64,000 bases of DNA from Pseudomonadota bacterium (GTDB lineage Bacteria; Bdellovibrionota_B; Oligoflexia; Oligoflexales; CAIYRB01). Numbering within the stretch: position 1 is the stretch's first letter; the number at the start of each line of letters is the position of its first letter. Location of the stretch: contig JANOTL010000094.1 of NCBI GenBank assembly GCA_031416315.1, positions 1-64,000 of the forward strand, in the 5' to 3' direction. Below the pieces are notes generated by a model. The model searched no databases and was not told where the DNA came from. It worked only from the letters and a program-made list of their open reading frames with translations. Shown here in pieces: positions 20,068 through 56,940 of this stretch. The position numbers were made by a program, and so were the translations under genes.

Positions 20068-21441
20068 TCAGTTGGCGGCCCGCAAGAGGGCCACCTGCCC
20101 CTGTCGCGAAGCGTCGATCGACTGGCCCAGGATCCGCATGGCCTCCTGCGGCGCGTGAAAGCCGGAAGAGTTTTCCGCTTCGACGAAGTCGAGCAGGAAC
20201 TGAGCTCGCCGCTGGGCGCCTTGTGCCGTAACGAACGCCTCGTCGCTGCGGCCCGCGCCGTTCGCGGCCTTCAGATCGTCGATCAGCGCCATGAGCGCGT
20301 TCATCGCCGTGTCGCGCAAGGCCGCAGTCCGGCTTTGAATCAGGTCCACGCGTGCCAGGATCTCACCTTCGCTCTGTTTGTGGCACGTCTGGCAGGCGCG
20401 ATTGATGTTCAACATCGGACTCTGAACGTGGTGGTCGCTGACCTTCGCCGCGCCGACCCGCTTGTAAGGCATATGGCAATCGGCGCACGTCACGCCCGAC
20501 TTCGCGTGGACGCCCTGGCTCCACATTTCGAACTCCGGATGTTGGGCTTTCAGGGCCGGCGCACCGGTGTCGGCATGAACCCAGTCCTTGTGCCCGACCT
20601 CTTCGTAGTAGGAAAGAATCTTCTCCACGCCCAATCCCTTGTCCCAAGGAAAGTAGAGGCGCTTCTCTTCCCCCTTGAAGTAGTACTCGACGTGGCACTG
20701 CCCGCAGACGAACGCCCGCTTTTCCTGATGCGTGGCCATCTTGTTCACGTCGTAGTCGGCGACACCTTCGCTCGCCTTGAGCCGACGCATGCCCTCCATG
20801 AAGGCAGGGCGTGTGATCCGCAGCTCCATCGTCTTCGGCTCGTGGCAGTCGACGCAGGCGACGGGGTGCTCCACCTCTTTGCGCACTTCGACGTAGGGCA
20901 TCTTGTTCATGGCCTCGAAGCCCTTCGTAACGTCCCCGTCACCGAGACGTCGGTACGCCTTCCAGGCCGATGCGTGGCAATGGACGCAGGTCCCCGGCTG
21001 TTTCACGACGTGCTGCCGTTCCGTGTAAGTCTGGTCGTCCAACATGTAGGCGTGGCCGCGCTCTTCCCGAAAATCTTTGGCGAAGGCATAACCCGCCCAC
21101 ATCAGCGCGAGGCGCGGATCCTCGTCGAGACGTGACTGAGCCACCGTCGCGCGCGGGTCTTTGGCCGTCGGCGTGCGGCGGACCGCCTCGCTGCCTCCGA
21201 ATAGCGTGCGTCCTTGATCGACCGTCTTTTTGTAGTCGTCATATTGCTGCGGGAAATTCTTCCCCCACATGCTCGGATCGTCGGTGTCCTCCGTCAGCTC
21301 GACGACGCGAAGGTAAGGGCTGCGGCCCTCCTGCTGCCGAGTCCAGACATTCACCAAGAGCGCGGCCGCGCCGGCGGCGGCTCCAGCTGCGACGAGCGTC
21401 AGCACCGCCCACCCGATCCACGTTTTCTTTTGTGCTTTCAT
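20068..21441 (-). CDS. nrfA: Ammonia-forming cytochrome c nitrite reductase, catalytic pentaheme subunit
   Basis: WAGYAFAKDFREERGHAY; five heme motifs CVHCH, CVDCH, CGQCHVEYYF, CADCH, CQTCH; LKAQHPEFE; ENSSGFHAP. Confidence 0.95.
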   Translation of the reverse strand: MKAQKKTWIGWAVLTLVAAGAAAGAAALLVNVWTRQQEGRSPYLRVVELTEDTDDPSMWGKNFPQQYDDYKKTVDQGRTLFGGSEAVRRTPTAKDPRATVAQSRLDEDPRLALMWAGYAFAKDFREERGHAYMLDDQTYTERQHVVKQPGTCVHCHASAWKAYRRLGDGDVTKGFEAMNKMPYVEVRKEVEHPVACVDCHEPKTMELRITRPAFMEGMRRLKASEGVADYDVNKMATHQEKRAFVCGQCHVEYYFKGEEKRLYFPWDKGLGVEKILSYYEEVGHKDWVHADTGAPALKAQHPEFEMWSQGVHAKSGVTCADCHMPYKRVGAAKVSDHHVQSPMLNINRACQTCHKQSEGEILARVDLIQSRTAALRDTAMNALMALIDDLKAANGAGRSDEAFVTAQGAQRRAQFLLDFVEAENSSGFHAPQEAMRILGQSIDASRQGQVALLRAAN

Positions 21442-21460
21442 GACCAAAGTCGAACCCCTC

Positions 21461-21913
21461 TCAGCGTGGATGCCCGACGTCGCCGTGGCACCGGACGCAG
21501 CGCGTTTGTTCTTGACCGGGCGCATGCGCCTCGATGGTGCTCACGATCGGTTGATGACATTTCCGGCACGAAGCTTCCGCGATCTTCTTGTTGAGACTGG
21601 TCGCGGACAGTGTGTCCTCGTACGTGCCGAACGTGAAGGCGACCGAGTGGTTGAAGCCGTTCAACGCCTTCGTCGCATACTTGCCGACGACGTTGGCGGG
21701 CGTGTGACAGTCGTTGCAAACGGCCCCCGTATGGTGACTGCCCTTCTCCCAAGCTGCGTAGTAGTCGCGCATGACATGGCAATTGGCGCACGCCGCCGGG
21801 TCGTTCGTCAGGTAAGAGGCGCCCTTCGCGAAGGTGAACGTGTAGACCCCGATGCCGACGGCCGCGCCGAAGGCAAGGAAGGCGGCGACGGGTAATGCAG
21901 TTAGGTGCGGCAA
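21461..21913 (-). CDS. nrfH: Cytochrome c nitrite reductase small subunit (tetraheme quinol dehydrogenase)
   Basis: N-terminal TM; SYLTNDPAACANCHVM, CNDCH, CRKCH, CVRCH...VGH. TTG 21913 chosen because it lies downstream of the sigma54 promoter. Confidence 0.93.
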   Translation of the reverse strand: MPHLTALPVAAFLAFGAAVGIGVYTFTFAKGASYLTNDPAACANCHVMRDYYAAWEKGSHHTGAVCNDCHTPANVVGKYATKALNGFNHSVAFTFGTYEDTLSATSLNKKIAEASCRKCHQPIVSTIEAHAPGQEQTRCVRCHGDVGHPR

Positions 21914-21953
21914 AAAGCTGATCCCATCGTGGAGCTGTACACGATCGACGTGA

Positions 21954-21968
21954 GCAATTCGCGTGCCT
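21954..21968 (-). promoter_or_regulatory. sigma54 -24/-12 promoter of nrfHA
   Basis: Minus strand AGGCACG-CGAA-TTGC(T), against consensus TGGCACG-N4-TTGC. Confidence 0.8.
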
Positions 21969-21976
21969 GTACGTCT

Positions 21977-21990
21977 GCGGCATATCACGC
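21977..21990. promoter_or_regulatory. Recurrent palindromic operator; further copies at 22010-22023 and 22029-22042
   Basis: (T)GCGGCA-TA-TCACGC(A), 8 bp from the nrfH -24 box. Confidence 0.6.
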
Positions 21991-22107
21991 ACGGTTTTCA
22001 GCACCTGGCGCGGCAATCCGCGCGTCTAGCGGGATCTCGAGCTGCAGTAGAAACTGGCCATTGGCTATAACAAGCTGAATTTATGGAATAAAATCCAGGC
22101 CTGCCTG

Positions 22108-22122
22108 TGGCAACCTCTTCGC
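22108..22122 (+). promoter_or_regulatory. Probable sigma54 promoter of the cco operon
   Basis: TGGCAAC-CTCT-TCGC(A): GG-N10-GC, 48 bp before the GTG. Confidence 0.6.
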
Positions 22123-22170
22123 AAAGGCTTCCCGCGGCACGCCTTCCCTGCGATCCATCCAGGAGCTCTC

Positions 22171-24318
22171 GTGGTCGAGCAGATTCGTTACGACGACGTG
22201 TCCGTCAAAAATTTTCTGTGGGCGACGATCTTCTGGGGCGTGATCGGCATGCTCGTCGGGGTGACGATCGCGATCCAGATTTTCACGCCGGAAGCGAACT
22301 TCGGCCTGCCGTGGCTGAGCTACGGGCGCCTTCGGCCGCTGCATACCAATGCCGTGATCTTCGCGTTCTGCGGCAACGCCATCTTCGCCGGAATCTATTA
22401 CTCGACACAACGCCTACTGAAGGCGCGACTGGCGTCCGACTTGTTGACCCGCATCCACTTTTGGGGCTGGCAGCTCATTATCGTCGCGGCGGCGATCACC
22501 TTGCCGCTCGGATTGACGACGTCAAAGGAATACGCAGAGCTCGAGTGGCCGATCGACATCGCGATCGCGCTCGTCTGGATCACCTTCGGGGTGAACCTGC
22601 TCTGGACGGTGCGCAAGCGCCGCGAGCCGACGCTCTACGTCTCGATCTGGTTCTATATCGCGACGTTCCTGGCGGTCGCGATGCTCCACGTCGTCAACTC
22701 GCTCGAGATCCCGGTCTCCGCGTTCAAGAGCTACCCGATCTTCAAGGGAGTCCAAGACGCCCTCGTTCAATGGTGGTACGGCCACAACGCGGTGGCCTTT
22801 TTCCTGACCACGCCGTTTCTCGGCCTCGCCTACTACTTCATCCCGAAGGCCGTGGACAAGCCGATCTACAGCTACCGGCTTTCGATCATCCACTTCTGGT
22901 CGCTCATTTTCATCTACATCTGGGCCGGCCCGCACCACCTTCAATACTCCAGTCTCCCCGACTGGCTTCAGTCGCTGGGCATGGTCTTCAGCGTGATGCT
23001 GCTCGCCCCTTCCTGGGGTGGCGCCATCAACTTCGTGCTGACCTTGCGCAACGGTTGGGACCGCGTTCGTACCGAGCCGATCCCGAAGTTCTTCGCGGCG
23101 GCGACGACCTTCTACATGATGGCGACGTTTGAAGGCCCGCTCCTCTCCATCAAGAGCGTGAACGCGCTGAGCCACAACACCGACTGGACGGTCGGCCACG
23201 TGCATTCCGGCGCGCTCGGTTGGAACGGCCTGCTGATCTTCGGCATGACCTACTATCTCGTTCCCCGGCTCTACAAGACCAAGCTCTTCAGCCAACGCCT
23301 GGCGACGACCCACTTCTGGATGGCGACCGTCGGCATCGCGCTCTACGTCGTGGCACTCTGGGTTTCCGGCGTGACGCAGGGACTGATGTCGAACGGAGTC
23401 AATGCCGCCGGGGCCCTGGCGCATCCGAACTACCTGGAGATCGTCACGTCGATCCGCCCGCTGCACGTCATTCGCGCGATCGGCGGCACGCTCTACCTCT
23501 CCGGGTTGCTGCTGATGGTCTTCAACCTATGGAAGACGGTGAGAAACGTGCCGGCCGGCGTCGTCGACGAACTCGTGTCGGTGCCGAGCGGGCGCCGGGG
23601 AGATGCCGTCCCAGTCGTCTATCCAGCTGGAACGAAGGCGCTCGGCCGCATTCAGGTGCTGGTCGAGCACCGAGGCTTCGTACTCGCGGTTCTTTCGCTC
23701 GTCGCCGTTGCGATCGGCGGGCTCTTCCAGATCGTGCCGATGCTGCGCGCGATGCCCGAAGGGCTTCGGGATGCCGCAATCTACCCCTACACTCCGCTGG
23801 AGCTCGAGGGTCGGGACCTCTACATTCGCGAAGGCTGCAACGGCTGTCACACGCAGCAGGTTCGCCCGATCGCCGGCGAGGTCATGCGCTACGGGCCGCC
23901 CTCGCGTGCCGCGGAGGGTGCCTTCGACACGCCGCACCTCTGGGGCTCGAAGCGCACCGGCCCAGACCTGGCGCGCATCGGCGGAAAATACAATGACCAG
24001 TGGCACTGGAAGCATATGCTCGAGCCGCAGTCGACCTCTCCCGGCTCAGTGATGCCGCCGTACGCCTGGCTCGCGCGCGACCGTCTTTCGATCGCGGATC
24101 TTCGCGCCAAGCTGGAGGGTTTACGCGCCATCGGTGTGCCGTACACCGACGCGGACGTCGCCGGGGCGTCGCAGCACCTCGCGTCGCAGGCAAAAGGGAT
24201 CGCCGACAGGCTCGCGGCACAAGGCGAGGTCGTCGACGCCGGTAGCGAGATGATCGCCATGATTGCCTACCTGCAGCGCTTGGGCGCAGATTTCAAGAAG
24301 GCGGGGGTATCGCCGTGA
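22171..24318 (+). CDS. ccoNO: cbb3-type cytochrome c oxidase, fused subunits I and II (CcoN-CcoO)
   Basis: YGRLRPLHTNAVIFAF, WWYGHNAVAF, YIWAGPHHL, GHVHSGALGW (CcoN); GRDLYIREGCNGCHTQQVRP, WGSKRTGPDLAR (CcoO). AGGAG RBS. Confidence 0.97.
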   Translation: MVEQIRYDDVSVKNFLWATIFWGVIGMLVGVTIAIQIFTPEANFGLPWLSYGRLRPLHTNAVIFAFCGNAIFAGIYYSTQRLLKARLASDLLTRIHFWGWQLIIVAAAITLPLGLTTSKEYAELEWPIDIAIALVWITFGVNLLWTVRKRREPTLYVSIWFYIATFLAVAMLHVVNSLEIPVSAFKSYPIFKGVQDALVQWWYGHNAVAFFLTTPFLGLAYYFIPKAVDKPIYSYRLSIIHFWSLIFIYIWAGPHHLQYSSLPDWLQSLGMVFSVMLLAPSWGGAINFVLTLRNGWDRVRTEPIPKFFAAATTFYMMATFEGPLLSIKSVNALSHNTDWTVGHVHSGALGWNGLLIFGMTYYLVPRLYKTKLFSQRLATTHFWMATVGIALYVVALWVSGVTQGLMSNGVNAAGALAHPNYLEIVTSIRPLHVIRAIGGTLYLSGLLLMVFNLWKTVRNVPAGVVDELVSVPSGRRGDAVPVVYPAGTKALGRIQVLVEHRGFVLAVLSLVAVAIGGLFQIVPMLRAMPEGLRDAAIYPYTPLELEGRDLYIREGCNGCHTQQVRPIAGEVMRYGPPSRAAEGAFDTPHLWGSKRTGPDLARIGGKYNDQWHWKHMLEPQSTSPGSVMPPYAWLARDRLSIADLRAKLEGLRAIGVPYTDADVAGASQHLASQAKGIADRLAAQGEVVDAGSEMIAMIAYLQRLGADFKKAGVSP

Positions 24319-24515
24319 CCACGACCCGAGACGAGCTTTTTCAGGCCTGGGCCGCGACCGACCCTTCGGCGCTCCTCTTTCCGACGGTTTCTTTCGCGGT
24401 TTGCGCGTCCGTCTTCATCCTTGCTCTCGTCGTCGTGCTCCTTCTCGTTTCGGGCGAGACCTGCGCGCAGATGGCGATGCTGCCGCTCGAGCGCGACGAG
24501 GGAGGGCGCCGATGA
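24315..24515 (+). CDS. ccoQ: cbb3 oxidase small subunit (CcoQ-like)
   Basis: 66 aa single-TM ORF coupled between ccoO and ccoP, ending MAMLPLE. Confidence 0.65.
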   Translation: MTTTRDELFQAWAATDPSALLFPTVSFAVCASVFILALVVVLLLVSGETCAQMAMLPLERDEGGRR

Positions 24516-25072
24516 GCAAGCTTCGCGACCATAGCTTCGACGGGATCCAGGAGCTGGATAACGACCTTCCCCGGTGGTGGGTCGCGCTCTTCTTCCTCAC
24601 CATCTTCTTCGGCGTCGGCTACATGGCCTGGTTCCATGTTTTGCCGAGCCCGACCCTAGCCGAGGAGCTCGAGCAGGAGCTCGACGCCAGAAAATCCGCA
24701 AAAACGGCGGCTGCCGCAGTACGCCCGGCCGGCACCGCCGCCGCCTTCGACTATGCGGCCGCGACGCGCGATTCCGCGATTGTCGCCTCGGGAAAGGAGA
24801 CCTACGGCGCCATGTGCGCGGCCTGCCACGGTCCCGACGGACAAGGTCTCGTCGGCCCGAATCTCACGGACGACTTTTGGCTGCACGGGGCGACGTTTGC
24901 GGCCGTCGAGCAAACGGTCTCGGTCGGGGTCCTCGAGAAAGGCATGCCGGCATGGGGCGAGATCCTCGGCGCCGAGAAGGTCCGCGCGATTGTGGCGTTC
25001 CTCGGCACGATCCAGCGGACCGCGCCGGCGAATCCAAAGGCGCCGCAGGGCGAGGCCGGGGCTGTGCCGTGA
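24512..25072 (+). CDS. ccoP: cbb3 oxidase subunit III, short monoheme form
   Basis: HSFDGIQELDNDLPRWW, CAACHG, VGPNLTDDFWLHG, GMPAW. Confidence 0.93.
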   Translation: MSKLRDHSFDGIQELDNDLPRWWVALFFLTIFFGVGYMAWFHVLPSPTLAEELEQELDARKSAKTAAAAVRPAGTAAAFDYAAATRDSAIVASGKETYGAMCAACHGPDGQGLVGPNLTDDFWLHGATFAAVEQTVSVGVLEKGMPAWGEILGAEKVRAIVAFLGTIQRTAPANPKAPQGEAGAVP

Positions 25073-26469
25073 GCCGCGAGGCGCCGTCGCCCGAGCTTGC
25101 CGATCAGCCGCGCACGATCCGGCGCGGCGGCGCCCGCGTCTGGATCCATGCAGCCACGGTGAAAGGGCGTTTCGCTCGGCTGCGCAACGTCGTGGCGGCG
25201 CTCCTCGTCGCCCTCTTGTTCTTGTCGCCCTGGCTCCAAGTGGACGGGCGCCCCTTCATGCGTCTGAGCTTTCTCTCGCCTTCGTTCGTCCTTTTTGGAC
25301 GGCACGTCATGATCTACGAGTTCCATCATTTCGGCCTGCTGGCGCTTCTCCTGGTGCTGACCTTGTTTAATGCCAGCGCGAATTTCGGGCGGATCTGGTG
25401 TGGCTACGCCTGCCCGCAGACCGTCTTCATCGAGCAGATCCTGGGCCGGATCGAGACCTTCTTCGAAGGCTCGGCTGCGAAGCGGCTCACTCAGGTCGGA
25501 AAGCCTTTGACGTTGGGCCGGATCGCCCGCAAATCCGGGAAGCAGGCGGCGTACCTTCTCGTTTGCGCCGCCTTCGCGTTCACGCTCGTTGCATGGTTCA
25601 CGGGTCCCGAGCTCATCCTCTCCGGCGAAAGCTCGGGCGCGACGACGGCGATGGCGCTTCTGACCGGCCTGGCCTGGTTCGACGGTGCCTACTGGCGCGA
25701 GCAGTTTTGCCACATCGTTTGCCCGTACGGCAGGCTCCAGAGCGTCATGCAAGACCGTGCTACACGTACGATCGGCTACGACGCGCAACGCGGCGAGCCG
25801 CGGCGGCGCGGCAAAGATCGATCGAGCGCCGGCGACTGCATCGACTGCGACCGCTGCGTCCGCGTCTGTCCTTCCGGGATCGACATCCGTCAGGGCGAAA
25901 GCCAGCTCGAGTGCATCGGCTGCACGCGTTGCATCGATGCCTGCGACTCGGTCATGACGACGCTGAAGAAGCCGAAAGGTCTGATCCGATACGATGCGGT
26001 CGCCATGTTCGGCGCGTCGCCGCCGAAGTCGCGGCCGAAGCTCATGCGGCCGCGCTCGCTCGTCTTGGCGTCGCTTTGGGTCGCGCTCGCCTCCTTCGGC
26101 GTTTGGCAGTTCGTCGACCGGGACCCGTTTCACGCGCAGCTCCTTTCGACGCAGAGTGGCGTACCCTTCTTCATCGACGGCGAGCGGATCAAGAATCTTT
26201 CGACCCTCAAGGTCGGAAATCAAGGGGCCGTGCCGGAAACGTACGACGTGCGGCTCGAAAGCGACGCCGACGCGAGCGTGCGTCTGGAATCGCCGCCCAC
26301 TTTGGGACCCGTCCCCGTGGGCGAAGAAACGGGTATTCCCGTCCTGGTTTCCGCGCCCGCGACGCTGGCGGGCGGCACTTACGCCGTATCGGTTGTCGCG
26401 AGAAGCACCGGCGAGAAGCGGCTGATCGAGCGCCGCCTCCTCGGCCCCGGCAAAGGCGGCTCGCCTTAG
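25069..26469 (+). CDS. ccoG: Cytochrome c oxidase accessory Fe-S protein CcoG/FixG
   Basis: GRIWCGYACPQTVF, REQFCHIVCPYGRLQS, CIDCDRCVRVCPSGIDIR, ECIGCTRCIDAC. Confidence 0.95.
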   Translation: MSREAPSPELADQPRTIRRGGARVWIHAATVKGRFARLRNVVAALLVALLFLSPWLQVDGRPFMRLSFLSPSFVLFGRHVMIYEFHHFGLLALLLVLTLFNASANFGRIWCGYACPQTVFIEQILGRIETFFEGSAAKRLTQVGKPLTLGRIARKSGKQAAYLLVCAAFAFTLVAWFTGPELILSGESSGATTAMALLTGLAWFDGAYWREQFCHIVCPYGRLQSVMQDRATRTIGYDAQRGEPRRRGKDRSSAGDCIDCDRCVRVCPSGIDIRQGESQLECIGCTRCIDACDSVMTTLKKPKGLIRYDAVAMFGASPPKSRPKLMRPRSLVLASLWVALASFGVWQFVDRDPFHAQLLSTQSGVPFFIDGERIKNLSTLKVGNQGAVPETYDVRLESDADASVRLESPPTLGPVPVGEETGIPVLVSAPATLAGGTYAVSVVARSTGEKRLIERRLLGPGKGGSP

Positions 26470-27215
26470 GAATGATGGTGCGAATGGTCGTGCTCGCCGC
26501 CGTGCAATGCCCGCCAAAGGATGGAGATCGACGTGAGGACCAGCAAGATGGCGAAGAGGATCGGCGCTGCCCGCGGGAAGCGACGCTCGAGCCAAGCGCT
26601 GAGCCCGCTGCCTGCCCAAAGAGCCGGCGACGTCGCCACGGCGAAGGCGAGCATCGCCGCGCCGCTCCAAACCGGGTGCGCGATGAGGGCCGCCTGTGCC
26701 AACGCCGCGTAAAGAAAGGCGCAGGGCAAGAGCGCCGTCGCAATTCCGAGGCCGATCGCCCGCGGCGCGCGCAGCCTTTGCGCGTGGCGAAAGAGGGTCG
26801 CGCCCCCGCTCCAGCTGGTCGACTCCCCATGCGGTCGGCGTTGAAAGAGGCTCACGAACGCCCGGCTGTCCCGCCGTGCGCCAATCGCTCGGGCGAGCTC
26901 GACCAAGGCATACGCCAGCATTACGACGCCCAACGCCACGCCGAGGCGCATGCCGAAAGCTTCAATCACCGGTCGAAGCGTCGCGGCTGAGACGAGGCCT
27001 ACGACCATTCCCAGCAACGCGTACGAAGCCGCGCGCGTGCCGTGATACTGCGCGGCTTCGCGCCAGCCGAACGGTCCGGCCGCTGGATCTCCACGCACGC
27101 GGCACGCGCTCGACGCCAGAGGCCCGCACATGGCCGCGCAGTGGAGAGAGCCCATGAGCCCGAACAGCGCGACGGCCCCGACGGTCAATGCTTCTGCGCC
27201 CACGGTCTCCACCAA
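26466..27215 (-). CDS. DsbD_2 / TauE-SafE-like membrane protein (cbb3 assembly associated)
   Basis: GLMGSLHCAAMCGP and LLPCAFLY motifs, multiple TM helices, His-rich tail. Start is TTG 27215 or GTG 27212. Confidence 0.85.
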   Translation of the reverse strand: MVETVGAEALTVGAVALFGLMGSLHCAAMCGPLASSACRVRGDPAAGPFGWREAAQYHGTRAASYALLGMVVGLVSAATLRPVIEAFGMRLGVALGVVMLAYALVELARAIGARRDSRAFVSLFQRRPHGESTSWSGGATLFRHAQRLRAPRAIGLGIATALLPCAFLYAALAQAALIAHPVWSGAAMLAFAVATSPALWAGSGLSAWLERRFPRAAPILFAILLVLTSISILWRALHGGEHDHSHHHS

Positions 27216-31251: not shown

Positions 31252-31281
31252 GGTCGTCCTCCAAGGTTAGCGCACGTCCAC

Positions 31282-31296
31282 GCAAGTTTGGTGCCG
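31282..31296 (-). promoter_or_regulatory. sigma54 promoter (lipoprotein-CBS-cytochrome c' unit)
   Basis: CGGCACC-AAAC-TTGC. Confidence 0.75.
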
Positions 31297-31305
31297 GGGC
31301 GTTTC

Positions 31306-31319
31306 GCGTGATTTCACGC
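31306..31319. promoter_or_regulatory. Palindromic operator centred between divergent sigma54 promoters
   Basis: Perfect GCGTGA-TT-TCACGC, 9 and 10 bp from the two -24 boxes. Confidence 0.7.
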
Positions 31320-31329
31320 ACCGACGGCT

Positions 31330-31344
31330 TGGCCTCGCACTTGC
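31330..31344 (+). promoter_or_regulatory. sigma54 promoter (hybrid kinase-HDOD-PAS kinase unit)
   Basis: TGGCCTC-GCAC-TTGC(A). Confidence 0.7.
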
Positions 31345-31388
31345 AGCGAGATGAGCTCCTCATCTTTGATTCACTCGCCGGAGAAACC

Positions 31389-46789: not shown

Positions 46790-46825
46790 GGGCTCTCCGA
46801 AGGCATGCGGGCTGCGAGATGTTGA

Positions 46826-46962
46826 GCAATCGAAGGGCCCAGTTGCTTGGCGCCCTAACTATCTGATTACGCGTGAAATACCACACTTGAAGGTACTAAA
46901 TCGCGCAGATTCGAGTGCGATTTCACTCAATCCTCAGTGAATTCGCCTGGTCACAGATTTGC
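46826..46962. promoter_or_regulatory. Divergent sigma54-like promoters with three degenerate sites at 22-bp spacing
   Basis: Minus GGGCCCT-TCGA-TTGC (46826-46840); sites at 46871, 46893, 46915; plus TGGTCAC-AGAT-TTGC (46948-46962). Confidence 0.55.
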
Positions 46963-46995
46963 TCAACTCGTCGCAACCAACTCAAGGAGGCTCCC

Positions 46996-47995: not shown

Positions 47996-49093
47996 ATGCA
48001 GGAAGCCGCAGAAATCAAGTTGCAGGAAGCCACGTTTCGCGGTCTTCTCGAGGCCGCGCCCGACGGCATCCTACTCGTCGATCGTTCGGGCGTCATCGCC
48101 TTCGCGAACGCCGCTTGCGCGAGCATCCTCGGCTACACCACGGCGGAGCTGATCGGTCAGCTGATCGAGATCGTCGTGCCGGCCTACATCCGACCGAATC
48201 ACGCAGCGCTGCGCGACAACTATTTCGCGGCGCCGCACACCCGGCCGATGGGGATCGGCCTCGATTTGGTCGCCGCCCGCAGGGACGGCACCAGCGTTCC
48301 CGTCGAGATCAGTCTGAGCCCGTTCACCTTCGAGGGTCACGATGGCGCCGTCGCCATCGTCCGCGACGTCACCGACCAAAGACGGTTGAGCCGGGAGCTC
48401 AAGCGCTCGAACGAAGAGCTCGAGCAATTCGCTTACGTCGCGTCGCACGATCTGCAAGAGCCTCTGCGCATGGTGTCTGGATATACGCAGCTTCTCAAGC
48501 GTCGATACGTGGACAAGCTCGACACCGACGCCAACGAATACATCGAGTTCGCGGTCGACGGCGTCAAGCGTATGCAGTCCTTGATCAGCGACCTGCTCGC
48601 ATTCTCGCGGCTCAGCACCCACGGCAAGAACTTCTCCACCGTCGACTTGCAGGACGTGTTCGAGCATGCCTGCGCCAACCTGCAAGCTTCGATCGCCGAG
48701 ACGCGGGCGCAGGTCGTCATCGAGGCTTTGCCGAAGGCGTCGGGGGACCGGACCCAGCTCATCCAGCTCGCGCAGAACCTAATCGGCAACGCGCTCAAGT
48801 TCCACAAGCCCGGTGTTGCGCCCGTGATCAAAGTGACGGCCGCCGACGAGGACAAGCTCTGGCGCCTCGACGTCGCGGATAACGGCATCGGCATCGAGCC
48901 TCAGTATCGCGACAAGATCTTCGTCATCTTCCAGCGCCTGCACACCCGAGACAAATACGCCGGCACCGGCATCGGACTCGCCGTTTGCAAGAAGATCGTC
49001 GAGCGTCACCACGGGCGCATCTGGATCGACTCCGAGCTGGAAGTCGGGACGACCTTCCACTTTACGCTACTCAAAGAAGGGGTGCGCTCGTGA
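47996..49093 (+). CDS. PAS sensor histidine kinase, paralogue of 33952-35052
   Basis: APDGIL...RPMGIGLDL, FAYVASHDLQEPLRMVSGY, YAGTGIGLA. Confidence 0.92.
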   Translation: MQEAAEIKLQEATFRGLLEAAPDGILLVDRSGVIAFANAACASILGYTTAELIGQLIEIVVPAYIRPNHAALRDNYFAAPHTRPMGIGLDLVAARRDGTSVPVEISLSPFTFEGHDGAVAIVRDVTDQRRLSRELKRSNEELEQFAYVASHDLQEPLRMVSGYTQLLKRRYVDKLDTDANEYIEFAVDGVKRMQSLISDLLAFSRLSTHGKNFSTVDLQDVFEHACANLQASIAETRAQVVIEALPKASGDRTQLIQLAQNLIGNALKFHKPGVAPVIKVTAADEDKLWRLDVADNGIGIEPQYRDKIFVIFQRLHTRDKYAGTGIGLAVCKKIVERHHGRIWIDSELEVGTTFHFTLLKEGVRS

Positions 49094-49536
49094 TCCTCGC
49101 GCATAGCGGACGGTCGGTCGAGATCCTCCTCGTCGAGGACAACCCCGGTGACGTGCGCCTCGCGGTCGAAGCGCTCAAAGAGGGGAACGTCCGTAGCAGC
49201 CTTTCCGTCGCCCAGGACGGCGTCGAGGCCTTGCGCTTCCTGCGGCGCGAAGGCCCTTACGCCGCCTCTCCCAAGCCCGACGTCATTCTGCTCGACCTCA
49301 ACCTGCCGAAGAAGGGCGGGCGCGAGGTGCTGGCGGAGATCAAGGCCGACGAGGCCTTGCGACGCATTCCGGTCATCGTGCTCACGACTTCGAACGCGGA
49401 GGAGGACATCCTCCGCAGCTACGACCTTCACGCAAACTGCTACATCACGAAGCCGGTCGACATGGATCATTTCATCACGGTCGTGAAGTCGATCGACGCG
49501 TTCTGGTTCAACGTCGTTACGATGCCGACGGCGTGA
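49090..49536 (+). CDS. Single-domain response regulator (Rcp1-like)
   Basis: ILLVEDNPGD, ILLDLNLPKKGG, SYDLHANCYITKP, FWF. Confidence 0.93.
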   Translation: MILAHSGRSVEILLVEDNPGDVRLAVEALKEGNVRSSLSVAQDGVEALRFLRREGPYAASPKPDVILLDLNLPKKGGREVLAEIKADEALRRIPVIVLTTSNAEEDILRSYDLHANCYITKPVDMDHFITVVKSIDAFWFNVVTMPTA

Positions 49537-49540: not shown

Positions 49541-50719
49541 CTAAAGGTCCTCGATCTCCGCAAGGTAACGCGCCACCTCGAACTCGTCCGCCGTCGGCGC
49601 GCTCGTCCGTACGAGCATCAGAGTCGCCTCGGCGCCCTCGCCGACCCCCGACGAGCGCAAGGTGAGGCGACCGCCCATGTTTTGCGCCAGGGTCGCGCAG
49701 AGCCAAAGCCCCAAGCCCTGTCCGCCACGGAGCTTCTTGGTCGTGGCGAAGGCTTGGAACGTGGCGCGCTCGCCCGGGGGATCGAAGCCGATGCCGTCGT
49801 CTTCGACGCGAACGGCCGCGTGCTCCGCCTCGTGGCTCAAGGCGATGCGGATCGCGCCGCCGATGGGCGAGTCGAGCTCGTCGATCGCATCCTTCGCGTT
49901 CAGGATCAGGTTGATCAGCACCTGTTTGACGCGCACCGAGTGCGCCATCGCCCACACTTCGCCTTCGCATCCAGACAGCGCCAAACGGGTGGGTTTGACC
50001 CTCTCGCGCATGAGGCTGACGACATCGCGGACCAAGGCGCCGACGTCCGTAGCCCTCGCCGTCGCGGCTTCGGGTTGCAGGAGGCTCGAGACGTTCCGCG
50101 AGACGTCGGTGAGGAGCTCGGCCGACTGCGTCAAAGCCCGCAGCGCCTCGGTCCCGAGCGCATCGGTCTTGCCGCTGAAGAGCCGCACGATGTGGGTCGA
50201 GGCTAAGTTGACGAGGCCGGCCAAGTTGCGGATCTCGTGGTGGGAAGCGGCCAGGAGGCGTCCGACGATCGCCAGATTCTCGGAGTCCTGGAGGCTCGCC
50301 TCCAAGTTCCGCACCTTCTTGAAGTTGGCGATCGCTTTCATCGTGCGCAGCACGAGCTCCGACAGCTCGATCGGCCGTACGACGTAATCGACGGCGCCCA
50401 TCGCCAAGCCTTTGACACGATTTTCCGCCTCGGGAAGGTGGGCCGTCGTGAGGAGCACGGGCAAGTCGGGCCGTGGCGAGCCCTCGCGCTTGATCCAGGA
50501 GAGGAGATCGAAGCCGGATTCGCCCGGCATCGAGATGTCGGAGAGCACCAGGTCGAAGCCCCAGCCGGCGCTTTCGAGGGCCGCTCTGGCTTCCGGAACG
50601 CTCTGCGCGAGCGAGACGGAGAGGCCTTGCTCCTCGAACAGCGTGCCCAAGAGCTTCAAGACGCCCGGGTTGTCGTCGACGACGAGGATGCGGTCATGGT
50701 CTGCGGAAGACTGCGACAT
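49541..50719 (-). CDS. Hybrid REC-histidine kinase
   Basis: LSDISMPGESG, SHHEIRNL, QVLINLILNA, DDGIG, GQGLGL. Confidence 0.9.
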   Translation of the reverse strand: MSQSSADHDRILVVDDNPGVLKLLGTLFEEQGLSVSLAQSVPEARAALESAGWGFDLVLSDISMPGESGFDLLSWIKREGSPRPDLPVLLTTAHLPEAENRVKGLAMGAVDYVVRPIELSELVLRTMKAIANFKKVRNLEASLQDSENLAIVGRLLAASHHEIRNLAGLVNLASTHIVRLFSGKTDALGTEALRALTQSAELLTDVSRNVSSLLQPEAATARATDVGALVRDVVSLMRERVKPTRLALSGCEGEVWAMAHSVRVKQVLINLILNAKDAIDELDSPIGGAIRIALSHEAEHAAVRVEDDGIGFDPPGERATFQAFATTKKLRGGQGLGLWLCATLAQNMGGRLTLRSSGVGEGAEATLMLVRTSAPTADEFEVARYLAEIEDL

Positions 50720-50754: not shown

Positions 50755-50769
50755 TGGCACGATCATTGC
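50755..50769 (+). promoter_or_regulatory. sigma54 promoter, full consensus
   Basis: TGGCACG-ATCA-TTGC(T). Confidence 0.88.
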
Positions 50770-50811
50770 TCAACCCACCGTATACGAAACCATGGCTCCC
50801 GAGGAGATCGC

Positions 50812-51282: not shown

Positions 51283-51289
51283 GCGTCGC

Positions 51290-53173: not shown

Positions 53174-53230
53174 GCTTCATCCTTCTCTAGGTATCGGCTT
53201 TGTGAGGACGCTTGTTCTGCCCGTCACATT

Positions 53231-53245
53231 GCTAGAACCGTACCA
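53231..53245 (-). promoter_or_regulatory. Probable sigma54 promoter of GFDDND paralogue 4
   Basis: TGGTACG-GTTC-TAGC(A). Confidence 0.6.
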
Positions 53246-53279: not shown

Positions 53280-54848
53280 TCATTCCAGAATCGCGAGATC
53301 ACCCAGCGCCGACACGGCCGCCAGCGCGTCGATCGAGTCCGCGGACCGCGGCAACCGCAGCTCGCGCAGATTCTCGAAACCCGCGAGGGGCGCGAGGTCC
53401 GCGGTCGCCACGCCCGATAGGTCGACGTACTGAAGGTTCGTGAACTCGGCGATCGCCGAGAGGTCGGCGATGGCGGTTCGTGAGAGATCGAGCGACCGCG
53501 CTCTCTGCAGCGCATCATTGGCTGAATGGCAGCTACACGCTGTGCCAAAACACGCAGCGCGGCGCAGGATGCCCATTTCTGCTGCAGCCAGAGCGTCTCC
53601 CGTGCTTTGCGCCGCGAGACAACGTTGGACGAAGGCGTTGCGCCGATCGAGCCGCCAGGTCGGAGCCTGCAGCGTCGGACCGGTGACGCGGACTCCCGAC
53701 GCAGTCAGCAGCTCGATGACGTCCTGGTTCGCAAGCGCATTCCATCCGACACGCAGAAATCGCAACGCCGTGAGCCCGCGAAGCGGGGTCACATCGGTGA
53801 GGGCGTTGTCGTCGAGGTTGAGACGCTCGACCGAGCGCAACGCCGCAAGGGGCCGCGCATCAATCAGGAGCGAGCGTGACAGATCGACTTCACGCGCCGC
53901 CCCCGCCCACGCCTGCAACTCCTCGCAGGTGACGTCGCTCTCGAAACGCCGACGCCCGTCGGCGCGCACGAACGCGGTCCGAAGCGCTGCGACCGTGCGG
54001 CGCGCTCCATCATCGCCATTCTCGGCGAGGCAAAGGTCGCTCGCGTCGGCAAGGGCCTCGACTTGCTCGCCGCAGCCGGCGCCGGAGCGCCAACCGGTCT
54101 CCGCCTCGAGCCAACATGCGTACGGCGCGACCAAGGTCCAGATTCCGGGGTAATCGGCGTTGCCACACGGGGCGGGACCTCGAGAAGTGATCCCCAGCAG
54201 GCGAAAACCGCCGTCCGCTGTGCGTCCGAACGCGGGGCCGCCGCTATCGCCATCGCATGCATCGCCCGCGTCGTCGCCAAGCGCGATCTCGCGAGCGCTG
54301 CGGAACTTCAAGCGCGCCTCGCCTTCGAACTTGCGTCCCAAAGCCCGCGTTTCGTTGTCATGGACGCCGAAGCCGACGATCCGCAAGCTCGAGCCTGGTA
54401 GGAGCGCGGCGTCGACCTCGAAGACCGTGGTCGCCACGGGCACGAGCTCGACGTCGTTCTGGGCCTCGGCCAAGATCAGATAGGCGAGGTCACTCGAGCC
54501 CCAAACGCCGCTCGGATAGGCGGGATGCCGCGCGCCGCGTACGACCGCGAGCGCATCGCCGAAGCGGCCGCCGTCCTCGCCGAGGCCTCGGTGCACCGAA
54601 ATCGTGCCGAGATCCGCTCCGGACGGCAGGCAATGTGCCGCGGTCAGCACCACGGTCGGCGCGATCAAGACCCCGGTGCACGTGAGGTTGCCATGCGAGG
54701 TCAAGGCAACGGTGTTCGCCCAGTGCCCGTCCGCGACCGGCGCCGCGTTGGGGCCGACGACGCTCGGATCGGAGAAAGACATCGCGCGACCGCAGCCGAG
54801 GAGTGCCGTTAACGCCAGCAGGACGAGAATCGGGATGTGATTGGCCAT
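53280..54848 (-). CDS. Lipoprotein S1 (trypsin-like) serine protease with C-terminal leucine-rich repeats
   Basis: Lipobox LLG-C; CTGVLIAPTVVLTAAHC, DLA, GDSGGP; LRRs (LNLDDNALTDVTPL, LDLSRTAIADLSAI). Confidence 0.9.
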   Translation of the reverse strand: MANHIPILVLLALTALLGCGRAMSFSDPSVVGPNAAPVADGHWANTVALTSHGNLTCTGVLIAPTVVLTAAHCLPSGADLGTISVHRGLGEDGGRFGDALAVVRGARHPAYPSGVWGSSDLAYLILAEAQNDVELVPVATTVFEVDAALLPGSSLRIVGFGVHDNETRALGRKFEGEARLKFRSAREIALGDDAGDACDGDSGGPAFGRTADGGFRLLGITSRGPAPCGNADYPGIWTLVAPYACWLEAETGWRSGAGCGEQVEALADASDLCLAENGDDGARRTVAALRTAFVRADGRRRFESDVTCEELQAWAGAAREVDLSRSLLIDARPLAALRSVERLNLDDNALTDVTPLRGLTALRFLRVGWNALANQDVIELLTASGVRVTGPTLQAPTWRLDRRNAFVQRCLAAQSTGDALAAAEMGILRRAACFGTACSCHSANDALQRARSLDLSRTAIADLSAIAEFTNLQYVDLSGVATADLAPLAGFENLRELRLPRSADSIDALAAVSALGDLAILE

Positions 54849-54878
54849 CCAGCCAGTTTACCCGCACGCGCTCCTTAA

Positions 54879-54957
54879 TATCAATAGATTTCAACAGCTT
54901 GCGCGAAAACGCGCGGGTGCGTGATACGACGCAGGCGAAAGGCGGTACGGCCCTTGC
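54879..54957 (+). promoter_or_regulatory. IHF-like AT tract, two palindromic sites and a sigma54 promoter
   Basis: TATCAATAGATTT (54879-54891); GCGCGA-AA-ACGCGC (54901-54914); TGCGTGA-TA-CGACGCA (54918-54933); CGGTACG-GCCC-TTGC (54943-54957). Confidence 0.68.
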
Positions 54958-54993
54958 TCAGGAAGAGGGACGATCCCACGTGAAAGGCTCTCC

Positions 54994-56127
54994 ATGACTC
55001 TCCTGCGCTCGGCCCTGGCCAAGAGCCTCGGCCTTCTCTGTCTCGTCACGACCGAAGCCTTGGCCTTCGAGCCACGCTGGCGCAAAGACATGCGCGAGAT
55101 GGCGGAAGTCTTCTCCGAGGCGCTGCCGATCGTCATAAGCGACGCGGCCTATGAGAAGCCTTCGCTGCAGAAAAAATTGGTGAAGGACCTCCGCAAGCTC
55201 TCGAAGACGGCGAAGCGGGTCGAAAGGGCGTTGAGCGAGCAGATCGACGACCCGGTCATCCCCCACGTGACCGTGAAAATGTCGCGAAGCTTCGACCGCG
55301 CCGCGACGCTGCTCGAGAGGGGCGAGGCCGGCACGGCTCGCGGCCTCGTACGCAGCGCGACGGGGTACTGCATCAGCTGTCATACGCGCCTGCCCGGCGC
55401 GGCCGCTTCGGTCGCGGTCGAGCCGCGCGCTCCCAAGGGATTCGTGCTCGGAGCCGCCGACACCGCCGAGTTCTACGCCGCGACGCGCCAGTTCGAGAAG
55501 GCGATCGTCTCGTACGAGGCCGTCATGAAGGACCGCTGGCTTGCCGCGACGTTTCCCCACCGTTGGGCGCTCGCCGCGCAAAAGATGCTGGCGATCGTGG
55601 TGCGCGTCCGCGATGAGCCTCGCCTGGCGCTCGAGATCCTATCGGCCATTCGCGACGAGAAGGCGACGCCCGCGGCGCTTTACCGCGACGCCCTGATCTG
55701 GCGCGGCTCGGTGGAGGAGTGGCTGGCGGAGCCGAGCGCGAAACCGCGCGACCTCGCGCGCGCCAACGAGCTCTACGCCGAGGGCGAGGCCCAGGTCTTG
55801 AAGACCGGGTCGCAGGCAGCGGGATTGATCCCTTTCCTGCGCGCGTCCGCGATCCTTCACGAGCTGCTGCGCGAGCGGCGCAACGACCAGGAATTCGCGG
55901 CGACCCTCGATCTCGCGGGCAAAACGGCCGAATGGCTCGCGCCGATCGTGCTCTGGACCTTGAACGAGTCTTACTTCGAGGCCTGCATTCGGGTCGTCCC
56001 GCACACGGCGCGCGCCGGAATTTGTCTCGAGCACTTCAAGGATGCGCACGTGACGTCGATCGAGCGGGACGAGGCGCGGCTGAGCGAGCTCGAGAGGCTC
56101 GCTTCCGAGGTGGAGTCCGGGAAGTAG
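54994..56127 (+). CDS. Secreted cytochrome c'-like monoheme plus TPR-like protein (B), paralogue of 42874-44034
   Basis: Signal peptide, CISCH, ATRQFEKAI, YFEACIRVVPH; same layout as protein A. Confidence 0.75.
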   Translation: MTLLRSALAKSLGLLCLVTTEALAFEPRWRKDMREMAEVFSEALPIVISDAAYEKPSLQKKLVKDLRKLSKTAKRVERALSEQIDDPVIPHVTVKMSRSFDRAATLLERGEAGTARGLVRSATGYCISCHTRLPGAAASVAVEPRAPKGFVLGAADTAEFYAATRQFEKAIVSYEAVMKDRWLAATFPHRWALAAQKMLAIVVRVRDEPRLALEILSAIRDEKATPAALYRDALIWRGSVEEWLAEPSAKPRDLARANELYAEGEAQVLKTGSQAAGLIPFLRASAILHELLRERRNDQEFAATLDLAGKTAEWLAPIVLWTLNESYFEACIRVVPHTARAGICLEHFKDAHVTSIERDEARLSELERLASEVESGK

Positions 56128-56163
56128 CCAATGAAGCGGCCCAATCCTCCGAGGAGACCCTGC

Positions 56164-56940
56164 ATGATGCGCCCCTTTGCGACCATGATTCTTTGCGTTG
56201 CCGCGACGAGCGCGTCAGCCAACGAGCTCGTGCTTCTTCCCGCGTTTCAGGACGGCCCGCTTGGCGCGTGTCCCGTTTTCGACCGCGCGACGAGCGCCGA
56301 GGCGGAGCTGCGGATCGCGAGCACGGTGCCGCGCACGACGACACTCGCGCTCGGCGCGGCGACGCCTTTGGGACGAGACGTCTCGTTCTCCGCGTCGGCG
56401 CAGACGCTCCAGGACGCGCGGGGGGCCGGTCGGCGCGCCGACGTGAAGGCAGGTCCTCTCGTCTGGTTCGGAGCGCTCGCGGTCGGCGGCGCGGTCGGTG
56501 CTGTTTTTCTCGCCGAGACGCCACGGCCTGCGCCGATGGCGACGGCCTTTGCCGGCTGGCGAGGCAAGGACCTGACGGCCGCGGTGCAACATCGGCTGTA
56601 CGATAACGACGGCAAAGCGTCGCCGCCTCCCCCGACCACAGCGCTACGGGGTCGCTATGCCTTGCTGCAAGAGTTGGATCTGGGATTCGATCTTTCGACG
56701 ACCGATGCGCTCTGGTCCGTCGCCGGCGGCGGCGTCTACAAGACGACGGTCGGCGTCGATCTGGCGACGTCCTACCACTTTGCCGAGCCCAAAGCGGGCG
56801 CTTCGCGGCTAGGCGTCGGCGTCGTCGTCCCCGCAGCGGCGTTCAGGTTGCAGTTGGATCTCGGATACCAGACCAGCAAGCCCCCAGGTTCCGACGCCAA
56901 GGCCTGGGACATCGCTTCGAGCTTGGTCGTACCCCTCTGA
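56164..56940 (+). CDS. Secreted hypothetical protein, possibly a beta-barrel
   Basis: Signal peptide, alternating beta-strand patterns; ATG 56164 with GGAG RBS. Confidence 0.55.
   Translation: MMRPFATMILCVAATSASANELVLLPAFQDGPLGACPVFDRATSAEAELRIASTVPRTTTLALGAATPLGRDVSFSASAQTLQDARGAGRRADVKAGPLVWFGALAVGGAVGAVFLAETPRPAPMATAFAGWRGKDLTAAVQHRLYDNDGKASPPPPTTALRGRYALLQELDLGFDLSTTDALWSVAGGGVYKTTVGVDLATSYHFAEPKAGASRLGVGVVVPAAAFRLQLDLGYQTSKPPGSDAKAWDIASSLVVPL

Follow-up and report, generated by a model that had tools for sequence, protein, structure and literature searches.

In rhizobia, the cbb3 oxidase is placed under oxygen control by the FixL-FixJ-FixK cascade, and in Mycobacterium tuberculosis the LuxR-type regulator DosR (DevR) acts at sigma-70-type promoters and is served by sensors that hold haem in GAF rather than PAS domains. 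The described system closest to the locus reported here is NmpRSTU of Myxococcus xanthus. According to the papers on this system, the protoglobin kinase NmpU is active when oxygen is present and phosphorylates the receiver of NmpS and the receiver-only protein NmpT, and without oxygen NmpS phosphorylates the NtrC-like activator NmpR (PMC6211767, PMC11841059). NmpR activates the sigma-54 promoters of its own operon (in which a CBS gene comes first), of nmpUTS, of a universal stress protein (USP) gene, of a P-type ATPase/cbb3 locus, and of hemN with a hemerythrin gene (PMC6211767, PMC11841059); this regulon is induced by hypoxia, and CBS and USP proteins bind nucleotides (PMC11841059). Here we report on a 37-kb island (positions 20068..56940) in the first 64,000 nucleotides of contig JANOTL010000094.1 (C94), which is the whole stretch of DNA that we analysed and is called the window below; it belongs to the draft genome G000 of an uncultured Oligoflexales-like bacterium (6.36 Mb, 226 contigs, 93% complete). 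An earlier note on this DNA had proposed that the island is a self-contained low-oxygen regulon driven by sigma-54. That it is a real sigma-54 regulon appears very probable, and this part of the proposal is borne out in silico by the scores of an independently built matrix, by sites conserved before orthologues, and by a common palindrome at a fixed distance. Beyond this, we lean towards the view that its about 16 sigma-54-type promoters likely form one regulon, with an activator of its own acting on the palindrome and haem-PAS kinases reporting low oxygen or another haem ligand.

[quoted passage not shown] Both systems have a sigma-54-dependent NtrC-like activator that regulates itself (the autoregulation being predicted here), and in both, judging by architecture, the genes for a soluble haem sensor kinase, for a hybrid kinase whose receiver is N-terminal and for a protein that consists of a receiver only lie together. 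Genes for CBS, USP and cbb3 with a P-type ATPase are present in the two; here the CBS and USP genes have strong sites with palindromes, and the cbb3 operon has a site of only 8.8 bits. A hemerythrin gene with a weak sigma-54 site is found just past the window, and the half-site pentamer TGCGC/GCGCA is shared (PMC11841059). The two systems differ in phylum and in their sensor, which is of the FixL PAS type here and a protoglobin in NmpU; the receiver protein has one REC domain here and two in NmpT; the island holds an additional kinase-like protein, in which Asp replaces the phospho-accepting His and which is predicted to be co-transcribed with the activator; far more promoters are clustered together; and nrfHA, haem c proteins and secreted proteins of a family here called YB1M have been added. 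With FixL-FixJ-FixK the island has in common a haem-PAS kinase with the proximal His and cbb3 genes among its neighbours, but its window encodes no regulator of the FixJ or FixK/FNR type, its output goes via sigma-54, and Leu occupies the position of the distal Arg. With DosR/DevR it shares a USP-rich, hypoxia-type gene set and haem sensor kinases. In our literature searches, the NmpR work was the sole close match for sigma-54 together with hypoxia, USP and cbb3 (PMC11841059), and none of the matches listed for sigma-54/RpoN in Oligoflexia named Oligoflexia.

The presence of promoter-like sites in the island, their density and their orientation are direct observations on the sequence and its computed scores. 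All 16 GG-N10-GC sites of the earlier note are found where it had placed them (on the minus strand our 16-mers begin one base below its 15-mers), and they do lie a few tens of bp before genes. Counted as a bare consensus over the whole window, the motif gives 65 matches versus 53 +/- 6 in shuffles, with 5 of 100 shuffles reaching 65. Because this count is within chance, a matrix of 16 positions was built from 161 co-oriented upstream sites, all outside the island, and the genome was scanned with it; a site is called strong at 12 bits or more. By this measure 13 of the 16 sites hold up as matches to the TGGCAC-N5-TTGCW context at 10 bits or better (11 of them strong), all 13 being co-oriented with a gene and having 29-94 nt from the 16-mer to the predicted start codon, and three are weak (22108+, 46825- and 46948+); the matrix also added three sites to the list, at 27347-, 43012- and 36409-. 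Throughout the genome, sites of at least 12 bits number 187 in intergenic, co-oriented positions, 30 in intergenic positions that are not co-oriented, and 248 in coding DNA (5.7 Mb), a distribution from which we conclude that this organism makes heavy use of sigma-54. The signal is carried by the position and orientation of the sites, not by the bare consensus count. The 11 strong sites in 37 kb of island compare with a genome mean of 1.09, and they are the densest such cluster in the genome, the next-best windows having 7, 6, 5 and 5; a strong site precedes 11 of the 23 island genes with an upstream gap of at least 40 nt versus 175 of 3414 elsewhere (odds ratio 17, p 7e-9). A single Sigma54_DBD match, on contig C153, represents rpoN, and full activators (Sigma54_activat) number about 18. 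As a side observation, the -12 element is extended to TTGCTCA at 21953-, 46825-, 46948+, 50755+ and 54943+, and this 7-mer is about 22 times commoner in island spacers than in the other spacers of the genome.

The new finding of this analysis is a 16-bp palindrome, seen when the spacers were read, with the consensus TGCGYGAWWTCRCGCA from 12 island copies and the layout TGCGYGA-WW-TCRCGCA. Intergenic matches at 12 or more of its 14 consensus positions number 8 in the 2.26 kb of island spacers versus 15 in the other 585 kb, and many matches occur in coding DNA, as expected of a CG-rich word. A distance of 8-10 nt from the last base of the palindrome to the promoter 16-mer downstream of it is seen at 7 of the 11 strong promoters in the island versus 3 of 175 elsewhere (p 3e-8). 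In the usual sigma-54 numbering, with GG at -24 and GC at -12, the 16-mer begins at -26 and the centre of the palindrome falls near -42.5 from the predicted start; further copies at 19, 28-32, 41, 52, 63 and 74 nt are spaced by roughly whole helical turns. When palindrome and promoter are searched together with the true spacer, 12 intergenic matches are obtained, 8 of them in the island; with the spacer shifted by 5, 10 or 15 nt there are 1-4 intergenic matches, 0-1 in the island. Three back-to-back promoter pairs (31281-/31330+, 37985-/38043+ and 44073-/44121+) have one palindrome each, between predicted starts that are about 85-95 bp apart. A divergent sigma-54 operon pair with a shared activator region is known in E. 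coli zraP/zraSR. The same is described for the orp operons with OrpR and for the DVUA0100 pair of Desulfovibrio vulgaris (PMC4641369, PMC8359166), where activator sites lie mostly <100 nt from the promoter (PMC4641369). The island pairs resemble these in having one intergenic, putative activator site for two divergent sigma-54 promoters, and differ from them in the closeness of the starts and in the single 16-bp palindrome lying 8-10 nt from both -24 boxes. A tentative idea is that one activator dimer site near -42.5, abutting the polymerase, serves two back-to-back promoters in a class-II-like manner with no enhancer loop; we regard it as doubtful, but a Pro/Ala-rich tether in the activator and its Asp-for-His partner may make such a compact geometry possible.

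As the earlier note had it, a single NtrC-type activator is encoded in the island, at 44568-46118, and the window holds no second one; Pfam, moreover, identifies no other DNA-binding protein in the island. Its Walker A motif, GESGTGK, is intact, and a Pro/Ala-rich stretch of about 70 residues, read by eye, separates the ATPase from the helix-turn-helix (HTH) domain. No named NCBIfam equivalog fits it, the best being NtrC at 407 bits versus a cut-off of 559. Its loop reads GAFTDA, and this was rejected as a special mark, the FTDA form being present in 4 of the 18 activators of the genome. Of the 11 genomes in the family, 10 have an orthologue with 65-80% identity (paralogues picked up by this search are at most 55% identical, mostly 37-50%), and the HTH is invariant among 8 orthologues. 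In the spacer between the PAS-kinase and activator operons, relatives carry a 12/16 palindrome match in 6 of 7 control regions, and matches there amount to 2.9 per kb versus 0.78 in the rest of the loci (p 0.007). With three palindromes and a weak sigma-54 site upstream of its operon, the activator is predicted to be autoregulated. A link between activator and palindrome is plausible, and on these sequence grounds we think it probable that the one binds the other. On contig C126 we also noticed identical activator matches at 2323-2823 (+) and 15862-16362 (-), which suggests an inverted duplication or an assembly artefact.

The gene overlapping that of the activator by 4 nt encodes a protein of 224 amino acids (aa) that aligns from end to end with the cytoplasmic portion of ZraS (E 2.5e-32) and matches the C-terminal parts of AtoS and NifL in NCBIfam below cut-off. 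It keeps the ATP-lid and ATP-binding motifs, and an Asp aligns with the phospho-accepting His of ZraS; this H-box position is Asp in 7 of 8 orthologues and Asn in the eighth, so that none of these has an orthodox HisKA motif. In a search of 1.8 billion representatives, the replacement is kept in at least 90% of the 43 sequences drawn, and the top of the results holds about 40 clusters of short stand-alone proteins. Orthologues of the protein were seen in loci L016, L018, L019, L020, L022, L032 and L036, always just upstream of an NtrC-type activator in the loci examined. NifL is likewise kinase-like, does not act via a phospho-His, and is encoded upstream of, and translationally coupled to, the sigma-54 activator NifA; the island protein resembles it in all these respects, but it lacks a PAS/FAD sensor, and the activator here has a receiver rather than a GAF domain. 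That it modulates the activator, as a phosphatase or as an anti-activator, is a guess. A predicted complex between it and the receiver domain of the activator scored 0.01 in a run made without controls and is counted neither way.

With regard to the sensors, the earlier note had seen no counterpart of the Nmp protoglobin kinase, and in fact no PF11563 match occurs in the 93%-complete genome; kinases with FixL/DosP-like haem-PAS domains appear to stand in its place. The best solved matches of the PAS parts of the two island kinases are the FixL haem domains (E 4.8e-15 with kinase 2, 5.8e-13 with kinase 1), followed by DosP, the FixL and DosP matches of both domains ranging from E 5e-15 to 1e-9. 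The proximal His of FixL aligns in both with a His, which we take to be the haem ligand. The hybrid kinase at 49541-50719 shows Response_reg and HATPase_c in Pfam and an H-box that reads SHHEIRN by eye. It is the haem-PAS kinases and the NmpR precedent that support a low-oxygen signal, and by this analogy we slightly favour oxygen limitation as the main signal.

In the mechanism that we propose, the activator would bind the palindrome as a dimer, assemble, and open sigma-54 complexes. The PAS kinases (33967-35052 and 47996-49093) would sense a gas, and the signal would be relayed by the REC-kinase hybrid (49541-50719), the single receiver (49090-49536) forming a side branch, on the pattern of NmpU-NmpS/NmpT-NmpR; the Asp-for-His protein (46115-46789) would modulate the activator by other means than the usual phosphorylation. 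Besides nitrite reduction by nrfHA and the signalling genes themselves, the predicted output comprises a CoA-transferase, a transporter, four CBS-pair and three tandem-USP proteins, the cytochrome c'-like protein, two haem c proteins of the periplasm and four secreted proteins with two beta-sandwich domains; the cbb3 oxidase is a doubtful member. If this is correct, the island would be a second sigma-54-based low-oxygen regulon after NmpRSTU, in a different uncultured lineage and with a different haem sensor, and would suggest that sigma-54 is a recurrent alternative to control by FNR/FixK and by DosR. It would also give testable roles to the YB1M proteins, the periplasmic haem c protein and the Asp-for-His kinase-like family, and its bidirectional sigma-54 promoters, being compact and having a defined 16-bp operator, may serve as parts.

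Synteny in related genomes adds to this picture: uncultured Oligoflexales-like relatives have the same regulatory core, again with sigma-54 sites, and the nearest clusters in the protein atlas belong to Bdellovibrionota. A search with the haem protein alone gave no related loci, and an alignment-based search gave 10. The core in relatives consists of the REC-kinase hybrid and of the single receiver and PAS kinase, which share a strand and are divergent from the kinase-like protein, the activator, a 386-aa haem protein and the cytochrome c'-like protein, with CBS, USP, CoA-transferase and YB1M-type genes near it. In five loci, each of a different genome, 25 sites score at least 12 bits, and 17 of these stand no more than 200 nt upstream of a homologue of an island gene; the conserved sites precede orthologues whose proteins are 35-70% identical. 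The activator operon has a site of 15.8-16.8 bits in all five loci, the PAS-kinase operon of G006 one of 14.2 bits, and the nrfHA homologues of G007 and G008 (47% identity) one of 14.5-14.8 bits before nrfH; orthologues of the 386-aa haem protein are likewise preceded by a sigma-54 site. The 17 palindrome copies in relatives lie at 9, 10, 11, 29, 29, 39, 40, 57, 73-78 (five), 83-84 (three) and 93 nt from the promoter. The haem protein itself is found in 67 of the 131 genomes of the phylum set; in the distant families f13 and f15 it is present, with no regulatory core beside it and no palindromes.

We acknowledge that a number of results weigh against our reading. Three of the listed sites score only 7.5-8.8 bits, and two of these are the promoters of the regulators themselves. 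The enrichment of the palindrome in the island is partly circular because the motif was derived there, although the spacer control and the off-island matches are free of this circularity. Only 3 of the 17 copies in relatives lie at 8-11 nt (0.7 expected, p 0.03), the rest being at 29-93 nt, and the tight geometry is mainly a trait of this genome. In 60 other genomes of the order, the combined pattern occurs 0-7 times per genome, near the reversed-pattern control; among 16 of those matches that were examined, 5 have a sigma-54 score of at least 10 bits, and they precede a USP gene (one), an HSP20 gene (one), genes for unknown proteins (two) and no open reading frame (ORF) at all (one), so that USP is the only island family represented. 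The site, TGCGYGAWWTCRCGCA, is often single and lies 8-10 nt from the box, whereas NmpR is described as using pairs of GCGCA-N5-TGCGC 14-15 bp apart (PMC11841059). A run search with 36300-46200 found no public RNA run containing this DNA. Lastly, sigma-54 control of ccoNOQPG, which the earlier note had included, is weakly founded: since its site has 8.8 bits and a sigma-70-like match next to it, and since the only ccoNO homologue at threshold among relatives (G001, 58%) follows ccoS with no near sigma-54 site, the cbb3 operon is a doubtful member of the regulon.

The nature of the signal is one point on which the alternatives bear. It is possible, if not what we would expect, that the same circuit answers to nitric oxide (NO), carbon monoxide (CO), redox or energy state, as a response to nitrosative or energy stress. 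FixL contacts bound oxygen through a distal Arg (in GIGR), and both island PAS domains have a Leu aligned with it; in the absence of this Arg, the ligand could be NO, CO or redox state instead of oxygen. Cytochromes such as those of the island, together with NrfA, are linked to NO and nitrite handling, and NrfA, the cytochrome c'-like protein, the two haem c proteins and a cytochrome c peroxidase encoded nearby would suit such a role, as nucleotide binding by CBS and USP proteins, reported in the work on NmpR (PMC11841059), would suit an energy signal. Yet the closest studied regulon, by the same account, is induced by hypoxia (PMC11841059), the island contains a cbb3 oxidase with its maturation genes, and the best matches of the PAS domains, FixL and DosP, are both oxygen sensors. 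The promoters could, on the other hand, be a patchwork served by several of the roughly 18 activators in response to different signals, with only the palindrome-bearing subset under the island activator. The genome does hold some 187 candidate promoters; 4 of the 11 strong island promoters, among them the best (50755), have no palindrome at the usual spacing, which is lacking at 50755+, 39878+, 53230- and 27347-; and sigma-54-driven CBS, USP and YB1M genes elsewhere (C95:1885, C95:8905, C163 and C168) have none either. Promoters of this sort mean that more than one activator may operate. We still consider a patchwork unlikely, because 7 of the 11 strong promoters and the weak regulatory ones share the motif in phase, the same families recur with the activator in relatives, and the window has no second activator gene.

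Alternatively, if the palindrome were bound by another protein encoded elsewhere, such as a repressor or a nucleoid protein, with the activator working from other sites or from solution, a site that abuts the promoter with its centre near -42.5 would be well placed for repression also. Sites of the NtrC family usually take the form of a 16-bp TGC...GCA inverted repeat, which speaks for the activator. The same is true of the pentamer shared with the NmpR half-site (PMC11841059), of the three copies at the operon of the activator itself, of the enrichment of the motif in the orthologous control regions of relatives, and of the additional copies at helical-turn steps, so that we hold another binder to be quite improbable. 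That the GG-N10-GC matches are chance occurrences in G+C-rich spacers would agree with a bare count that does not leave the shuffle range (65 vs 53 +/- 6), but this explanation is already contradicted by a matrix trained outside the island, by the strong bias towards intergenic, co-oriented positions, by the rank of the island as the top cluster of the genome, and by sites conserved before orthologues at 35-70% identity; we give it hardly any credence.

The preferred reading of a single, activator-driven regulon does not extend to the claim that the island is self-contained, which fails: contigs C24, C95 and C212 have the same palindrome-promoter pair in front of CBS and USP genes, and rpoN itself is on C153. 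The short contigs C24 and C212 could adjoin the island in the real chromosome. A further combined-pattern match, at C73:54285, faces no co-oriented gene and was taken as chance. A genome-wide paralogue search brought up a second, small cluster at C95:1885-9879, made up of one CBS gene, three genes for USPs and one of the YB1M type; sigma-54 sites accompany two of these, and more YB1M-type genes with sigma-54 sites are on C163 and C168; all these sites are without the palindrome. By density of sigma-54 sites, C95 ranks among the top three clusters in the genome, and its parts at 1885-9879 and 31018-34655 look like a smaller CBS/USP/YB1M group with the palindrome in part of it. The hemerythrin gene, at C94:67877-68433 (L026:3963-4433), 3.9 kb past the window, has a 10.7-bit site 71 nt upstream and a poor palindrome.

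Table 1. Promoter sites, palindromes and genes of the island, and combined-motif matches elsewhere in the genome. Palindromes are scored on 14 consensus positions.
Feature	Position	Strand	Details
nrfH-nrfA, cytochrome c nitrite reductase	20068..21913	-	Pfam; NrfH above NCBIfam cut-off
Sigma-54 site	21953..21968	-	nrfH-nrfA; 16.1 bits; 38 nt before start
Palindrome TGCGGCATATCACGCA	21976..21991		12/14; 8 nt from nrfH promoter box
Sigma-70-like match	22067-22094		Beside 22108+ site
Weak sigma-54-like site, doubtful	22108..22123	+	ccoNO; 8.8 bits
cbb3 set	22171..29694		Fused ccoNO, small ORF, ccoP, ccoG (+); DsbD_2-family gene (-); P-type ATPase (+)
Sigma-54-like site	27347..27362	-	Faces DsbD_2-family gene 26466-27212; 14.3 bits; in predicted 5' end of P-type ATPase ORF; no palindrome near
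Operon	29898-31251	-	Lipoprotein, CBS protein, cytochrome c'-like protein
Sigma-54 site	31281..31296	-	10.6 bits; 30 nt before start of 29898-31251 operon
Palindrome CGCGTGATTTCACGCA	31305..31320		13/14; common to 31281-/31330+; 9 and 10 nt from boxes
Sigma-54 site	31330..31345	+	13.5 bits; operon of hybrid kinase, HDOD, PAS-kinase 1 (31428-35052)
PAS-HisKA-HATPase kinase 1	33967..35052	+	54.5% identical to kinase 2
Palindrome-like TGCGTGAAATGACACT	36338..36353		11/14; 9 nt from 36362+ box
Sigma-54 site	36362..36377	+	13.2 bits; 47 nt before tandem USP 1 (36424-37455)
Sigma-54-like site, doubtful	36409..36424	-	11.0 bits; faces CoA-transferase gene 35049-36308; overlaps ribosome site and start of USP 1; CoA-transferase homologue in G006 has its own 15.5-bit site
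Sigma-54 site	37985..38000	-	12.1 bits; 36 nt before CBS pair gene 37482-37949
Perfect palindrome TGCGCGATCTCGCGCA	38009..38024		14/14, sole such match in genome; common to 37985-/38043+; 9 and 19 nt from boxes
Sigma-54 site	38043..38058	+	16.6 bits; YB1M-type secreted protein a and papain-family protease (38113-39861)
Sigma-54 site	39878..39893	+	15.0 bits; YB1M-type protein b (39933-40655); only weak palindrome matches (10/14), at 19 and 41 nt
Sigma-54 site	42051..42066	-	10.4 bits; 87-aa protein and tandem USP 2 (40718-41957)
Two palindromes	42075-42090, 42098-42113		13/14, 12/14; 9 and 32 nt from 42051- box
Internal sigma-54-like site	43012..43027	-	12.5 bits; YB1M-type protein c (42124-42852); within 3' end of cytochrome gene
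Sigma-54 site	44073..44088	-	15.2 bits; 386-aa haem c protein (42874-44034) and YB1M c
Palindrome TGCGCCAACTGACGCA	44097..44112		12/14; common to 44073-/44121+; 9 nt from each box
Sigma-54 site	44121..44136	+	18.9 bits; 29 nt before CBS pair gene 44165-44560
NtrC-type activator	44568..46118	-	REC, AAA+ sigma-54 interaction domain, HTH_8 (Pfam)
ZraS/AtoS-like DHp-CA protein	46115..46789	-	224 aa; overlaps activator gene by 4 nt
Weak sigma-54 site	46825..46840	-	8.8 bits; operon of kinase-like gene and activator
Three palindromes, 22 bp apart	46870..46929 (46870, 46892, 46914)		10-11/14; between divergent regulatory operons; 19, 41, 63 nt from 46948+ box and 30, 52, 74 nt from 46825- box
Weak sigma-54 site	46948..46963	+	7.5 bits; USP 3, PAS-kinase 2, single receiver (46996-49536)
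PAS-HisKA-HATPase kinase 2	47996..49093	+	FixL/DosP-like PAS domain
Stand-alone receiver	49090..49536	+	Pfam Response_reg only; single REC
REC + DHp + HATPase hybrid kinase	49541..50719	-	NmpS-like architecture; no sigma-54 site of its own
Sigma-54 site, best-scoring of island	50755..50770	+	19.3 bits; CBS pair and CitMHS transporter (50812-52390); no palindrome match of at least 10/14 within 110 nt
Sigma-54 site	53230..53245	-	12.1 bits; YB1M-type protein d (52421-53173); one 11/14 palindrome at 45 nt, outside usual spacing
Trypsin-LRR protein	53280..54848	-	Inside island; no sigma-54 site
Two palindromes	54900-54915, 54918-54933		12/14 each; 28 and 10 nt from 54943+ box
Sigma-54 site	54943..54958	+	16.3 bits; second haem c protein (54994-56127), 258-aa protein (56164-56940)
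Off-island combined-motif match	C24		Tandem USP, then PAS gene
Off-island combined-motif matches	C95		CBS gene; USP gene with zinc alcohol dehydrogenase; unknown gene
Off-island combined-motif match	C212		CBS gene

Gene calling relied on a codon-usage model for which long ORFs of this same genome were the training set, nrfH being added by hand, and Pfam annotation covered 46 proteins of the island and right flank plus 20 of the left flank and beyond the window (66 in all), 16 key proteins being additionally compared with NCBIfam. The gene content given in the earlier note stands on both databases, CcoG scoring above its NCBIfam cut-off, and so does its statement on FNR/CRP, which is found in none of the 66 proteins scanned; throughout this 93%-complete genome, in fact, no HTH_Crp_2 match reaches the Pfam cut-off, and HTH_Crp_2 is present in all 14 control genomes. 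Among the cbb3 genes, ccoN and ccoO are fused into one ORF of 715 aa (22171-24318, +) with COX1 and FixO domains, and ccoP is short, at 186 aa. The island encodes, in total, four CBS pairs, three tandem USPs, an HDOD protein, a CoA-transferase, a CitMHS transporter and a papain-family protease, along with two PAS kinases, a hybrid kinase, the REC-kinase hybrid and the single receiver for signalling, and a cytochrome c peroxidase is found near it.

Ten island proteins have no Pfam family. For the uncharacterised families described next, co-regulation with nrfHA suggests that they may take part in periplasmic redox or gas chemistry. The beta-sandwich paralogues that the atlas names YB1M_beta are encoded at 38113-38835, 39933-40655, 42124-42852 and 52421-53173, with further members at C54:1430, C95:4381, C163:9791 and C168:27764; six of these eight have a sigma-54-like site of their own. 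The four island proteins have 240-250 aa, a signal-like N-terminus and four invariant Cys, and the structural model shows two beta-sandwich domains (pLDDT, the predicted local distance difference test score, 85), with no PDB match at E 0.001 or better. The 386-aa mono-haem protein, which has no Pfam or NCBIfam family, and its distant paralogue of 377 aa (54994-56127) both have a signal-like N-terminus, four long helices, a CxxCH at the end of these and a helical-repeat tail; the CxxCH is invariant in 11 sequences, and the arrangement resembles that of class II cytochromes. The model of the haem protein (pLDDT 80) gave no PDB match at E 0.001 or better either, the weak matches of this and the YB1M model being to generic Ig/FN3-like and TPR-like proteins only, and the haem protein's profile gave only a weak 'small soluble cyt c' match to PDB sequences (E 0.014). 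A protein of 131 aa has a C-terminal CxxCH and a sub-threshold Pfam match to cytochrome c' (E 1.7e-4).

The idea of a mobile island was rejected, as G+C is even through the window (0.62-0.68), no tRNA is supported, and the core is syntenic in relatives, with no sign of recent transfer. The only tRNA call, a 91-nt tRNA-Arg placed by ARAGORN at 32021-32111 (+), inside the hybrid kinase gene, is probably false because Rfam has no tRNA there; Rfam, in fact, gave zero matches in the window at the gathering score or at E 0.1. The sole public DNA run with this sequence, in the search made with 36300-46200, is a freshwater sediment metagenome, which may be the source run. In the left part of the window, at 476-10433, there is a separate signalling cluster without sigma-54 sites, made up of a CHASE3-GAF hybrid kinase, a hybrid kinase, an Hpt protein, two receivers and an OmpR-type regulator, and adjoined by a glycosyltransferase and a HEAT-repeat gene.

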